A model generated the notes under the pieces. That model saw only the letters and a list, made by a program, of their open reading frames with translations, did no database searches and was not told the origin of the DNA. From the NCBI GenBank assembly GCA_964016885.1, contig OZ024741.1, positions 405,790,001 through 405,854,000 on the forward strand: DNA of 64,000 nt, in the 5' to 3' direction. The DNA is from Eledone cirrhosa. Taxonomy: Eukaryota. This document shows, piece by piece, positions 58,801 to 64,000 of this stretch. Both the position numbers and the translations under genes were made by a program. Numbering within the stretch: position 1 is the stretch's first letter; each line of letters begins with the position of its first letter.

Positions 58801-60986
58801 ATTTAGGTTCATACTGCCTGGTTTATTTCAGGTTATTGAGATTAGAAGAATTGTAGACTAGCTGAAAGTATTTAGGTTCATACTGCCTGGTCCATTTCAG
58901 GTTATTGAGATTGGAAGAATTGTAGACTAGCTGAAAGTGTTTAAGTTCATACTTCCTGGTTTATTTCAGGTTATTGAGATTGGAAGAATTGTAGACTAGC
59001 TGAAAGTATTTAGGTTCATACTGCCTGGTTTATTTCAAGTTATTGAGACTGGAAGAATCGTAGACGAGCTGAAAGTATTTAGGTTCATACTGCCTGGTTT
59101 ATTTCAGGTTATTGAGATTAGGGAGAATTGTAGACTAGCTGAAAGTATTTAGGTTCATACTGCCTGGTTTATTTCAGGTTATTGAGATTGGAAGAATCGT
59201 AGACGAGCTGAAAGTATTTAAGTTCATACTGCCTGGTTTATTTCAGGTTATTGAGATTTGAAGAATTGTAGACTAGCTGAAAGTATTTAGGTTCATACTG
59301 CCTGGTCTATTTCAGGTTATTGAGATTAGGGAGAACTGTAGACTAGCTGAAAGTATTTAGTTTCATACTGCCTGGTCTATTTCAGGTTATTGAGATAAGG
59401 GAGAACTGTAGACTAGCTGAAATTATTTATGTTCATACTTCCTGGTCTATTTCAGTTTATTGAGATTAGGGCGAACTGTAGACTAGCTGAAAGTATTTAG
59501 GTTCATACTGCCTGGTCTATTTCAGGTTATTGAGATTAGGGAGAATTGTAGACTAGCTGAAAGTATTTAGGTTCATACTGCCTGGTTTATTTCAGGTTAT
59601 TGAGATTAGGGAGAATTGTAGGCTAGCTGAAAGTATTTAGGTTCATACTGCCTGGTTTATTTCAGGTTATTGAGATTAGGAAGAATTGTAGACTAGCTGA
59701 ATATATTTAGGTTCATACTGCCTGGTTTATTTCAGGTTATTGAGATTAGGAAGAATTGTAGACTAGCTGAAAATATTTAGGTTCATACTGCCTGGTTTAT
59801 TTCAGGTTATTGAGATTAGGAAGAATTGTAGACTAGCTGAAAGTATATAGGTTCATACTGCCTGGTTTATTTCAGGTCATTGAGATTGGGAGAATTGTAG
59901 ACTAGCTGAAAGTATTTAGTTTCATACTATCTGGTTTATTTCAGGTTATTGAGATTAGGGAGAAGTGTAGACTAGCTGAAAATATTTAAGTTCATACTGC
60001 CTGGTCTATTTCAAGTTATGGAGATTGGAAGAATTGTAGACTAGCTGAAAGTATTTAGGTTCATACTGCCTGGTCTATTTCAGGTTATTGAGATTAGGAA
60101 CAATTGTAGTCTAGCTGAAAATATTTAGGTTCATACTGCCTGGTTTATTTCAGGTTATTGAGATTAGAAGAATTGTAGATTAGCTAATAATATTTAGGTT
60201 TATACTGCCTGGTCCGTTTCAGGTTATTGAGATTATGGAGAATTGTAGACTAGCTGAAAGTATTTAGGTTCATACTGCCTGGTTTATTTCAGGTTATTGA
60301 GATTGGGAGAATTGTAGATTAGCTGGAAGTATTTAGGTTCATACTGCCTGGTTTATTTCAGGTTATTGAGATTGGAAGATTTGTAGACTAGCTGGAAGTA
60401 TTTAGGTTCATACTGCCTGGTCTATTTCAGGTTCTTGAGATTGCAAGAATTGTAGACTAGGTGAAAGTATTTAGGTTCATACTGCCTGGTTTATTTCAGG
60501 TTATTGAGATTAGGGAGAATTGTAGACTAGCTGAAAGTATTTAGGTTCATTCTGTCTGGTTTATTTCATGTTATTGAGATTATAATAATTGTAGACTAGC
60601 TGAAAGTATTTAGGTTCATACTGCCTGGTTTATTTCAGGTTATTGAGATTAGAAGAATTGTAGACTAGCTGAAAGTATTTAGCTTCATACTGTCTGGTTT
60701 ATTTCAGGTTATTGAGATTAGGGAGAAGTGTAGACTAGCTGAAAATATTTAAGTTCATACTGCCTGGTCTATTTCAAGTTATGGAGATTGGAAGAATTGT
60801 AGACTAGCTGAAAATATTTAACTTCATACTATCTGGTCTATTTCAAGTTATGGAGATTGGAAGAATTGTAGACTAGCTGAAAGTATATAGGTTCATACTG
60901 CCTGGTTTATTTCAGGTTATTGAGACTGGGAGAATTGTAGACTAGCTGAAAGTATTTAGGTTCATACTGCCTGGTTTATTTCAGGT
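49822..60986. repeat. Near-perfect 5,553-bp (~80-monomer) tandem block duplication inside the satellite
   Basis: Variants recur at an offset of exactly 5553: GCACG 50118/55671 and GACACTGG 51691/57244. The identical spurious ORFs start at 51113/56666. TGGGTGGTCT, AGGTGTATAC, TTAGTGTGAATAGG and GGTTCTTGAGATTGCAAG are also shared by both copies. Confidence 0.93.
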
Positions 60987-61286
60987 CATTGAGATTGGGA
61001 GAAGTGTAGACTAGCTGAAAGTATATAGGTTCATACTGCCTGGTTTATTTCAGGTTATTGAGACTGGGAGAAGTGTAGACTAGCTGAAAGTATATAGGTT
61101 CATACTGCCTGGTTTATTTCAGGTTATTGAGATTAGGAAGAATTGTAGACTAGCTGAAAGTATATAGGTTCATACTGCCTGGTTTATTTCAGGTTATTGA
61201 GATTAGGAAGAATTGTAGACTAATGCTGCTAGGGGTGGTGGGTGAGTTGAGGTGTGGTCGAGTTCCGACACAGAAGACTCAAGTCT

Positions 61287-61583
61287 ATTGGTCACCTATC
61301 AGACTGGTCATATAGTAGTGACTATTGTAAAACGGGTGCATTTGTCACCTATCTTACTGGTCATTCAGTGGTAACTGCTGTTAAAGGGGTGCGTTGGTCA
61401 CCTATCAGACTGGTCATTTTGTGGAGACTGTTGTAAAGGGGGGGGGGCAGACTGGTCATTCAGCAGTGACTGTTGTTAAAGGGGTGCATTGGTCACCTAT
61501 TAGACTGATCATTTTGTGGAGACTGTTGTAAAGGGGGGCATTGGTCACCTATCAGTGGAGACAGTTGTTAAAGGGGGAGGGGG
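61287..61583. repeat. Degenerate ~53-bp minisatellite, about 6 copies (two internally deleted)
   Basis: Approximate unit ATTGGTCACCTATCAGACTGGTCATTCAGTGGTGACTGTTGTTAAAGGGGTGC. GTCACCT occurs at 61291, 61344, 61397, 61492 and 61544. The units end in G-runs. Confidence 0.9.
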
Positions 61584-61756
61584 AATACGTATAAAACTAT
61601 GAAAATATCGTCTGGCCAAGACTAGGAGAAGAAAGAAACAAAAATATTAGTAAAATAATAATTATAAAGAGAAGACTATAGGAGTTAAAAAAAGGCAGTT
61701 TAAGGTTGGATTTACAAAATATATTCTTGTGTATATATGTGTTTATCTGTTTAGGC

Positions 61757-62936
61757 TAAGCTTGGTGTGGTTTGTCTCTAGTACATCCCACGGTCTGTTG
61801 TATTAGAGTGAGGTCACCCCGGGGTTGGAGTTAAGCTTGGTGTAGTTCGTCTCTACTACATCTCACGGTCTGTTGTATTAAAGTGAGGTCCCCGGGGTCG
61901 GAGTTAAGCTTGGTGTGGTTTGTCTCTAGTACATCCCACGGTCTGTTGTATTAGAGTGAGGTCACCCCGGGGTTGGAGTTAAGCTTGGTGTAGTTCGTCT
62001 CTACTACATCTCACGGTCTGTTGTATTAAAGTGAGGTCCCCGGGGTCGGAGTTAAGCTTGGTGTGGTTTGTCTCTAGTACATCCCACGGTCTGTTGTATT
62101 AGAGTGAGGTCACCCCGGGGTTGGAGTTAAGCTTGGTGTAGTTCGTCTCTACTACATCTCACGGTCTGTTGTATTAAAGTGAGGTCCCCGGGGTCGGAGT
62201 TAAGCTTGGTGTGGTTTGTCTCTAGTACATCCCACGGTCTGTTGTATTAGAGTGAGGTCACCCCGGGTTGGAGTTAAGCTTGGTGTAGTTCGTCTCTACT
62301 ACATCTCACGGTCTGTTGTATTAAAGTGAGGTCCCCGGGGTCGGAGTTAAGCTTGGTGTGGTTTGTCTCTAGTACATCCCACGGTCTGTTGTATTAGAGT
62401 GAGGTCACCCCGGGGTTGGAGTTAAGCTTGGTGTAGTTCGTCTCTACTACATCTCACGGTCTGTTGTATTAAAGTGAGGTCCCCGGGGTCGGAGTTAAGC
62501 TTGGTGTGGTTTGTCTCTAGTACATCCCACGGTCTGTTGTATTAGAGTGAGGTCACCCCGGGGTTGGAGTTAAGCTTGGTGTAGTTCGTCTCTACTACAT
62601 CTCACGGTCTGTTGTATTAAAGTGAGGTCCCCGGGGTCGGAGTTAAGCTTGGTGTGGTTTGTCTCTAGTACATCCCACGGTCTGTTGTATTAGAGTGAGG
62701 TCACCCCGGGGTTGGAGTTAAGCTTGGTGTAGTTCGTCTCTACTACATCTCACGGTCTGTTGTATTAAAGTGAGGTCCCCGGGGTCGGAGTTAAGCTTGG
62801 TGTGGTTTGTCTCTAGTACATCCCACGGTCTGTTGTATTAGAGTGAGGTCACCCCGGGGTTGGAGTTAAGCTTGGTGTAGTTCGTCTCTACTACATCCCA
62901 CGGTCTGTTGTATTAAAGTGAGGTCCCCAGGTCGGA
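61757..62936. repeat. Tandem repeat of a 148-bp dimer (75-bp A + 73-bp B subunits), 8 dimers
   Basis: TAAGCTTGGTG opens A units at 61757, 61905, 62053, 62201, 62348, 62496, 62644 and 62792; B units alternate (61832 ... 62867). A and B differ by 6 substitutions plus a 2-nt indel. Every subunit has AAGCTT (HindIII). All but the last have CCCGGG. Confidence 0.97.
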
Positions 62937-62987
62937 TTTTCCTTTTTCAATTCCTATCCTCTTTGCTCTATCTTCCATGATAAGTTT

Positions 62988-63028
62988 CTGTTCTACGTAA
63001 CCCTGTAACCTGTTCTATGTAACCCTGT
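62988..63028 (+). repeat. Short direct repeat, 19-bp arms, period 22
   Basis: CTGTTCTACGTAACCCTGT (62988-63006) versus CTGTTCTATGTAACCCTGT (63010-63028), one mismatch. Confidence 0.85.
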
Positions 63029-63166
63029 TATTAAACCGGTGAAGGAACTAAATAAATACTTTTAAAAAGACTCCAGTTGCATTTTCGATTTCATCTTTTT
63101 GCCTTCTATTTTCACTCATGTAGGACATCTCGTTTTTTTTTCATTTTGTAAAAAAACCCTCATTTT

Positions 63167-63170
<4 letters not shown>

Positions 63171-63224
<54 letters not shown>
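63171..63224. repeat. (TA)27 microsatellite
   Basis: Read directly from the sequence. Confidence 0.98.
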
Positions 63225-63228
<4 letters not shown>

Positions 63229-63286
63229 TAAATTAGCGAGAATCGTATTTCGGCTTAGGAATTAACGAAAAACAACTTCCGAGATG

Positions 63287-63302
63287 TATATATATATATA
63301 TA
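63287..63302. repeat. (TA)8 microsatellite abutting the left inverted-repeat arm
   Basis: Read directly from the sequence. Confidence 0.95.
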
Positions 63303-63326
63303 CAATATATTAATAAATGAAAACTA

Positions 63327-63429
63327 TATTTATAAAACCATATTTATTTTATTATACATATTTCAAGGGCAACCAAGGCAAATTATGGTGCGCTTTCATC
63401 AGATAAAATACAGATTTGTTTTATAAATA
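63327..63429 (-). ncRNA. Type I hammerhead ribozyme motif, minus-strand copy
   Basis: Reverse-complement twin of the plus-strand motif. TCATCAG at 63396-63402 reads CTGATGA on the minus strand. It differs at one position, the unpaired stem II base (AAGCGCACC). Predicted cleavage is between 63353 and 63352. Confidence 0.82.
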
Positions 63430-63620
63430 AATATTGACATACCCGGAAAAAAAGAGAACCTTAACGGTTGGAGCTTCCTGGATAGTGGAGATTATATTTT
63501 ATTGAGGGTAATACAAAGTTATGAGTGAGTATGAAAATGAGTGTCCGAAAGTTGAAAAGATAACGGTTTATTTAAATTAAACTGTTGGAAGAAGGTGATA
63601 TGTAAGGGTATGTCAATATT

Positions 63621-63723
63621 TATTTATAAAACAAATCTGTATTTTATCTGATGAAAGTGCACCATAATTTGCCTTGGTTGCCCTTGAAATATGTATAATA
63701 AAATAAATATGGTTTTATAAATA
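63621..63723 (+). ncRNA. Type I hammerhead ribozyme motif, plus-strand copy (Penelope-like architecture)
   Basis: Core CTGATGA 63648-63654 and GAAA 63686-63689. Stem II: AAGTGCACCA (63655-63664) pairs with TGGTTGCCCTT (63675-63685), with 1 mismatch and 1 bulge. Minimal stem III TATGTA 63690-63695. Cleavage triplet ATA 63695-63697. Stem I: TATTTTAT (63640-63647) with ATAAAATA (63698-63705), extended past an internal loop by TATTTATAAAAC (63621-63632) with GTTTTATAAATA (63712-63723). Confidence 0.82.
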
Positions 63724-63839
63724 TAGTTTCCATTTATTAATATATTGTATATTTACTCCACTAATTTGTTGAATGCTTTATATCAGTTATAAACATTTTT
63801 AAGCTTGTTGAATCCCAACAAATTAAATATAACCTCTGC

Positions 63840-63842
<3 letters not shown>

Positions 63843-63877
<35 letters not shown>

Positions 63878-63888
63878 GTGTGTGTGTG
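63843..63888. repeat. (TA)17 followed by a short (TG)5 microsatellite
   Basis: Read directly from the sequence. Confidence 0.95.
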
Positions 63889-64000
63889 TATGTAAATAGA
63901 ATTCTCTCAAACGGTACAATTTCAGGGAAATATGATGAACTTAAGTTTTCCATAAACAAATGTCTCTGTTCTCCAATGTATTATTTGTACATAAATAAAT

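Follow-up and report, generated by a model that had tools for sequence, protein, structure and literature searches.

Our analysis indicates that the inverted repeat near the end of a 64,000-nt stretch of Eledone cirrhosa DNA (the whole stretch is called the window here) very probably consists of two short pseudo-LTR ends of a Hydra-clade Penelope-like element (PLE), fused head-to-head through a 3-nt microhomology within a (TA)n tract, likely by a single integration. The locus is thus an ordinary head-to-head insertion, and the family to which it belongs is a new high-copy member of the Hydra clade.

Most of the window is satellite DNA, and the hammerhead pair lies in its last kilobase, flanked by TA runs, in a genome of 3.0 Gb. 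A 69/70-bp satellite with higher-order spacing and a strong strand skew (GC skew ~0.38) occupies positions 1-61222 (>61 kb). At its edge lies a short 52/53-bp repeat (61287-61552), followed by a young, GC-richer 74/148-bp satellite (61757-62936) in which the 148-bp unit occurs eight times at 99%. A dispersed repeat with a TA run at its end is found at 63033-63165: it has 2,700 candidates that are ~92% alike, some of them in inverted pairs, the window copy is missing the first ~55 nt, and neither a hammerhead nor an ORF was present in three loci. A third repeat contributes a 60-nt piece at 63226-63286, which is 88% like L045:8016-8073 and ends abruptly at the TA run. Contigs from three of four sequencing runs of one study (kind unrecorded) span the stretch with many variants, and are uninformative on ends, strand and level.

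The inverted repeat comprises 63295-63444 and 63606-63755, two 150-nt arms that are 98% complementary and separated by 161 nt, and each arm contains a complete minimal type I hammerhead, read outward. A preliminary description of this DNA, made from its letters alone, had reported two back-to-back hammerheads in a 147-bp inverted repeat. We found that these are real: the 150-nt arms are the same repeat with the TA edge included, and the type I core order, the 8-bp stem I and the 12-bp distal helix are present in both. We also agree on a dimer-type stem III and on the position of the predicted cut. The parts of the two motifs are as follows.

63621-63723, plus strand: right hammerhead with distal helix (core 63648-63654, GAAA 63686-63689, predicted cut after 63697)
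63640-63647 with 63698-63705, plus strand: right stem I, 8 bp
63648-63654, plus strand: right CUGAUGA
63655-63685, plus strand: right stem II (3 bp, mismatch, 3 bp, bulge, 3 bp, 10-nt loop)
63686-63689, plus strand: right GAAA
63689-63696, plus strand: right stem III, self-complementary, 8 nt, with A17 at 63697
63621-63632 with 63712-63723, plus strand: right distal helix, 12 bp
63327-63429, minus strand: left hammerhead with distal helix, the same motif (core C at 63402, predicted cut between 63353 and 63352)

With a permissive descriptor of type I hammerheads, we obtained two matches in the window and none when the 1,060-nt AT-rich flank was simulated 5,000 times under a first-order Markov model. 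An Rfam covariance-model scan of 60001-64000 returned no hammerhead family at E<=10, just (TA)n-driven miRNA matches and one chance snoRNA match, all under the gathering score, and so the Rfam check that the preliminary description had proposed failed. Minimal PLE hammerheads were themselves first detected by relaxed descriptors (PMC4209133). Folded as a single strand, the motif is modestly stable (z -1.9 for 116 nt, and -0.6 to -0.7 for the 75-nt core). Both window hammerheads lack the G10.1-C11.1 pair and have A-U there instead. The 8-nt stem III palindrome allows a dimer; because the duplex is worth just -2.2 to -3.2 kcal/mol, hammerhead activity is likely weak, and an unconstrained two-strand fold did not yield the stem III dimer. 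A third helix, spanning about -39 to +103, is predicted to lengthen stem I (63610-63751 in the window, with a mirror counterpart; signed positions are counted from the core).

We identified the source of the arms through a DNA search of the genome, which gave 3,699 candidates; the 40 that were scored comprise 11 short repeats like that of the window and 29 loci that match the left arm and spacer only. In the latter, left arm and spacer run into an AT-rich 3' UTR and then into the reverse strand of an endonuclease-like frame. One locus, L047, has the window layout enlarged: TA, a 2-kb inverted copy, a junction, reverse transcriptase (RT) and endonuclease-like pieces, 3' UTR, spacer, hammerhead, tail and TA. 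Its AT-rich 3' UTR is ~1.5 kb, long for a Hydra element, and contains expanding short tandem repeats. A second locus, L063, carries the identical hammerhead at L063:2245, followed by the tail, an ATG at +243 from the core and a 741-aa ORF. In the parent, the motif stands in front of an ORF, and we agree with the earlier suggestion that it is of the minimal type I kind found in Penelope pseudo-LTRs.

The L063 frame contains RWR at 39, DKT at 122, CxCx5C at 602, CxxC at 694 and CxH at 721, and no CCHH; compared by eye, it parallels Hydra-1_Obim and Hydra-1_Ajap motif by motif. According to Craig et al. (2021, PMC8557442), the marks of the Hydra clade are RW(K/R), DKT, CxCx5C, CxxC, CxH, no CCHH and a (TA)n target. 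The Eledone family shares this target: TA runs occur at nearly all 3' ends of 100 copies. The ORF has 31 relatives at E<=1e-20, and 26 of these, together with four genomic frames, formed the 30-row alignment that served as input for an AlphaFold model (pLDDT 84), whose first PDB match is a telomerase RT (E 7.5e-9). In this model, residues 613-704 form a beta-hairpin with helices. Weak matches to GIY-YIG and to RVT_1 were each obtained for one of the 30 alignment members, and both domains are annotated on some members of the groups that neighbour the ORF in the atlas at 0.96-0.98. The ORF itself gave no Pfam family in a search of six frames, and no useful PDB sequence match. The arms are identical with the pseudo-LTR of ORF-bearing copies, and the protein motifs and the (TA)n target very probably place the parent retrotransposon in the Hydra clade of PLEs.

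The insertion can be divided into the following parts.

63284-63297, no strand: left target, ATG then (TA)n, a probable left copy of the target-site duplication, ~12-19 bp, its edges blurred by the TA run
63295-63608, minus strand: inverted copy of the element end, ~311 nt, with a 3' UTR piece, putative promoter, hammerhead and short 3' end without tail
63445-63605, minus strand: spacer, which belongs to the parent element: it precedes the hammerhead, adjoins the left arm without a break, and is no separate part
63482-63489, minus strand: putative transcription start, initiator-like, with A at 63486 (-84 from the core); promoter predicted from end statistics
63606-63608, no strand: GGG microhomology at the inversion junction, three G common to the inverted and direct copies
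63606-63841, plus strand: direct copy of the element end, ~236 nt, starting at -42, with hammerhead arm and tail (long 3' end)
63756-63841, plus strand: tail, ~85 nt, right arm only, which in ORF-bearing copies continues into the 5' UTR and ATG
63840-63876, no strand: right target, an identical ATG(TA)n directly after the tail

The inverted copy is a continuous 96-98% match to one end of 29 of the 40 scored loci, running on into the 3' UTR and endonuclease-like frame, and the spacer sequence occurs in sense directly before the arm in L034, L036, L038, L043, L047 and L048. Because the spacer is continuous with the left arm, the insertion resolves into an inverted copy that extends to -203 and has a short 3' end, joined via GGG to a direct copy that starts at -42 and has a long 3' end. 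The arms represent the same retrotransposon end, copied twice and truncated at different points, and likely landed in the (TA)n tract, as two short head-to-head copies, in a single integration event. The ATG(TA)n at both flanks is a probable target-site duplication; the G at the left-target position is not present in sibling copies, and a chance TA-to-TG change could also account for it. An automatic reading of target-site duplications in 23 other pairs was uninformative, the flanks being pure TA or the pattern absent. The word at the putative start (-84) is initiator-like. The preliminary description had missed the ~85-nt right tail, the continuity of the spacer with the left arm, and the copy number.

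That description had instead read the locus as a cassette cleaving on both strands. A cassette of self-cleaving RNA that is independent of the element, has its transcripts leaving the spacer in both directions and is maintained for this function would be in keeping with the two intact cores and with a spacer that holds a putative start for the minus arm, from which an RNA (beginning at 63485) needs 1.6 kcal/mol to fold the hammerhead. We nevertheless consider it extremely unlikely: the right arm, which starts at -42, is without the -84 site, the commonest starting point of sibling copies; the spacer consists of normal parent sequence in a single orientation; sibling junctions vary; and a copy as young as this one, with arms 98% alike, would be expected to have intact cores anyway. 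The putative start site survives in the minus arm alone, so that no more than one outward RNA would be predicted; outward transcription is plausible for the minus strand only. Such an RNA is predicted to need a partner in trans to cleave. An RNA containing both arms folds as a long 150-bp hairpin at about -240 to -253 kcal/mol, and forcing the hammerhead in read-through RNA costs 100.9 and 99.3 kcal/mol, one value per strand; in these models, read-through RNA would bury either ribozyme in the hairpin. By analogy with other PLE hammerheads, the motif is probably a weak, dimer-requiring, protein-assisted ribozyme of the parent RNA. At this locus, the hammerhead is probably a passenger.

Homologous copies allowed us to assess the conservation of the motif. 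We counted non-majority letters in 70 copies that reach -45 or beyond. The possibility raised in the preliminary description, that core and pairings are no better conserved than their flanks, failed to hold: non-majority letters made up 3.6% of CUGA-GA, 3.9% of GAAA and 1.4-2.9% of stem I, as against 10.9% of the leader, 12.1% of loop II and 8-10% of the internal loop. Stem III stood at 9.8%, mainly through one G/A switch (25 G and 42 A among the 70) that preserves the palindrome, and the 5' side of the distal helix at 15.2%, mainly through a 4-nt indel. About 3% corresponds to the background decay of dead copies, and thus the signal lies in subfamily differences that avoid the core.

The same description had asked for covariation of the stems in homologues, and this was found. 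A total of 178 descriptor hits formed 34 clusters, from which 20 variants were aligned and 14 were omitted (5 unalignable families and 9 near-duplicates). Core letters are invariant in 20/20 variants, themselves found by a core descriptor, and 94.7% of cells in the alignment pair. Both sides change in 15 of 21 pairs, a count reached in none of 500 shuffles, with the outer stem pairs having been demanded by the descriptor; two inner stem II pairs, free of that constraint, still show double changes, in 8 and 9 of 19 rows. At the base of stem II, 16 variants have A-U, three have G-C and one has G-U. The same genome holds other hammerhead families (L049:124-273, L034:4779-4929, L079:7992-8143, L095:2505-2683, L155:36-216, L036:4281-4419 and L045:7194-7329), which have G-C or U-A at this position and differing palindromic stems III, two of them with very long stem II inserts.

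The family is abundant: its hammerhead pattern has 14,436 exact matches in the genome (control, 0). The first 100 of these listed include 8 divergent pairs within 5 kb and no convergent pair, and a frequency of 7 close pairs per 100 motif matches, roughly extrapolated to all 14,436, suggests about a thousand short pairs of this kind. A rival reading is a fold-back element that is non-autonomous (MITE-like or retrozyme-like) and copied as a unit by the Penelope enzyme. Consistent with such a unit, 11 repeats of similar size were found, and the 22-nt junction of the window recurs exactly at one other locus, L003, so that the unit may have been copied to a limited extent. However, the 11 repeats were chosen by likeness to the query, the junction has just two occurrences in 3.0 Gb, and L003 carries the tail on its opposite arm and different spacer variants, while the other nine window-like repeats have other junctions. 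In addition, there are no tandem arrays of the unit, the defining trait of retrozymes (bioRxiv 10.64898/2026.07.22.740005). A fold-back unit is therefore very unlikely. We likewise rejected a propagating MITE (the exact junction occurs twice genome-wide, junctions vary, the tail is one-sided) and a non-LTR retrozyme. Metazoan non-LTR retrozymes are similar in that a short non-coding repeat, with its origin in PLE pseudo-LTRs, carries a type I hammerhead; they are head-to-tail tandem units (bioRxiv 10.64898/2026.07.22.740005), whereas the window contains a single head-to-head pair with a tail.

Returning to the two pseudo-LTR ends, we found that the tail is one-sided in 11 of 11 window-like short repeats, which were picked for likeness to the window (five right, six left). 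For an unbiased sample, we turned to a 33-nt word located 3' of the cut site, which has 4,806 exact matches, and used the first 100 of them, all on contig C1. Their 3' ends are bimodal: 60 short, 37 long and 3 other. All 16 close divergent pairs (14 distinct) combine a short with a long end, and none is convergent. Five arms in duplicated loci (L115, L162 and L163) were dropped, leaving 95. An inverted neighbour with a visible outer end was present for 58 of these arms, giving 56 short+long combinations, one long+long (L120) and one unclassed; short+long thus holds for 56 of 57 classed neighbours, with pairs in which both arms were sampled counted twice. No inverted neighbour was found for 37 of the 95 arms. 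As a side observation, L161, L162 and L163 (G000:C1:86.08-86.14 Mb) are one head-to-head insertion present three times by local duplication, and L114 and L115 are also duplicates.

The 5' ends were similarly concentrated. We found 33 of the 95 arms ending at -86..-74 (33 of the 79 between -199 and +63, P 2e-22 versus uniform) and just 3 of 95 at -99..-87, bearing in mind that BLAST ends may stop early in diverged subfamilies and that for long copies the lengths are minimum values. Some further 5' ends, few in number, lie at -48..-39 and -11..-7. Subfamilies that differ at -75..-69 end at the same place. The pile-up at -86..-74 likely marks the 5' end of the RNA, to judge from these positions. 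We found no excess of 5' ends at the cut site (+47..+53; 3 of 36 versus 1.8 expected, P 0.28), and cleaved RNA as the template was rejected on this ground.

A different account of the same parent would place the inversion in self-priming (snap-back) at palindromes on the antisense template, as proposed in PMC3846280, with the peak at -83 set by self-complementary sequence and not by an RNA 5' end. Short self-complementary stretches do lie within -83..-55, and for 13 of 33 peak arms the partner at the junction starts in this interval. The other 20 are joined to TA, to unrelated DNA or to partner pieces starting elsewhere, which argues against palindrome annealing as the sole cause. Snap-back also leaves unexplained the common end position of subfamilies with different -75..-69 sequence, the unequal arms with plain microhomology seen in the window, and the short+long rule. 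We regard it as possible, though doubtful.

Our end statistics suggest a scheme of two-ended priming, and are the basis of its priming and run-off steps. In this scheme, the endonuclease of the element would nick both strands of a TA tract, and each nick would prime reverse transcription within uncut element RNA, at about +103 and about +198 from the core. Given the predicted stem I rod from about -39 to +103, the nearer site, and with it the short 3' end, would sit at the base of the entire rod. Synthesis of each cDNA would either end prematurely or proceed to the RNA 5' end near -84 and run off, and the two cDNAs would be joined at their growing ends. In the window, one cDNA would have extended to -203 and the other to -42; since the former passes the -84 site, the template would have been a read-through or tandem RNA. 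We give an even chance to the general form of this proposal, namely that an inverted pseudo-LTR with a tail would be the normal product of two-ended priming: two fixed sites ~85-95 nt apart upstream of the ORF, uncut RNA copied to its -84 start, cDNAs joined head-to-head, and a hammerhead fold that may serve as an enzyme dock as much as a cutter. A limited literature search for a transcription-start run-off or twin-priming model of Penelope elements returned nothing specific, and was too limited to show it unpublished.

Several observations count against our explanation of the feature as two Hydra-clade pseudo-LTR ends: the ORF has no Pfam or PDB sequence match, Rfam recognizes no hammerhead, the ~85-nt tail exceeds the 30-40 bp described, L120 has its long+long neighbour, and 37 of 95 arms lack a detected inverted neighbour. 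Set beside these are close parallels in published work. Hydra-clade elements (Hydra-1_Obim, Hydra-1_Ajap, Penelope-13_HM), which are of the C-terminal EN+ type, have a single RT-EN ORF of ~740 aa, which the Eledone ORF matches in length and motifs, and share with the Eledone family a (TA)n target and a pseudo-LTR hammerhead; Penelope-13_HM is listed, like the window insertion, with a truncated copy in inverse orientation and hammerheads on both strands (PMC8557442). An inverted truncated copy with a one-sided tail has been published for PLEs (PMC8557442, PMC3846280), as have an internal promoter within the pseudo-LTR of the D. virilis Penelope (PMC2377424) and an initiator-like TCACT in rotifer elements (PMC3846280).

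The Eledone family differs from the listed Hydra elements in its longer stem II, extended stem I, ~85-nt tail, ~1.5-kb 3' UTR and >14,000 motif copies, and its hammerhead motif was not found in the available part of the supplement of PMC8557442. The A-U pair at the base of stem II had been called unusual, a view that we do not share: 17 of 25 Hydra families have U before GAAA (File S2, PMC8557442). For the AUA triplet, likewise called unusual, the outcome was mixed. All 25 of these families have GUH, in contrast to the AUA and all-AU/GU stem III in Eledone; A is found at the cut site in 11 of the 25, and the difference is real but small. The AUA triplet is natural, and was the slowest of four tested in a viroid hammerhead (PMC1636495). 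The minimal metazoan PLE hammerheads of Cervera and De la Pena (2014, PMC4209133) are of the same type I, with a very short palindromic stem III, long stem II and predicted dimer cleavage, and likewise form many sequence families per genome, with dual motifs on opposite strands 100-700 bp apart. By comparison, the window has A10.1-U11.1 where G-C is called highly conserved in that source, no unpaired base between A9 and stem II, and a stem I of 8 bp with a distal 12-bp helix.

Weak activity would be no departure from other members of this class. Dimer cleavage of PLE hammerheads was described by Lunse et al. (via PMC6765202), whose work may already include A-U or AUA variants, and weak activity has been reported for the minimal forms (PMC4209133; PMC6765202). 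In the Poseidon element of Anolis, PAc, hammerhead cleavage is protein-assisted, and cleavage is not needed (Frangieh et al. 2024, PMC11167929). PAc has an AT-rich target, like the window family, and two RT starts bounding the tail, as proposed for the window family; for PAc, as in our data, there is no sign of cleaved RNA as template. PAc belongs to another clade, and its starts lie inside the ORF, whereas the Eledone ends fall upstream of the ATG (+103 and +198 versus +243); the starts of PAc were measured, whereas those in Eledone are deduced from genomic ends.

The locus itself changes nothing known about hammerheads. The value of the family is modest, and comes from the fact that the inverted ends and tails of PLEs are still open in the accounts of PMC8557442 and PMC11167929. 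Its three sharp coordinates (-84, ~+103 and ~+198) predict where the RNA starts and where priming occurs, in a clade that in vitro work has yet to cover, and the fixed start and end points of the sibling copies likely record how the element copies itself. If the scheme of two-ended priming is true, the Hydra family of Eledone would be an unusually large genomic record of Penelope integration.
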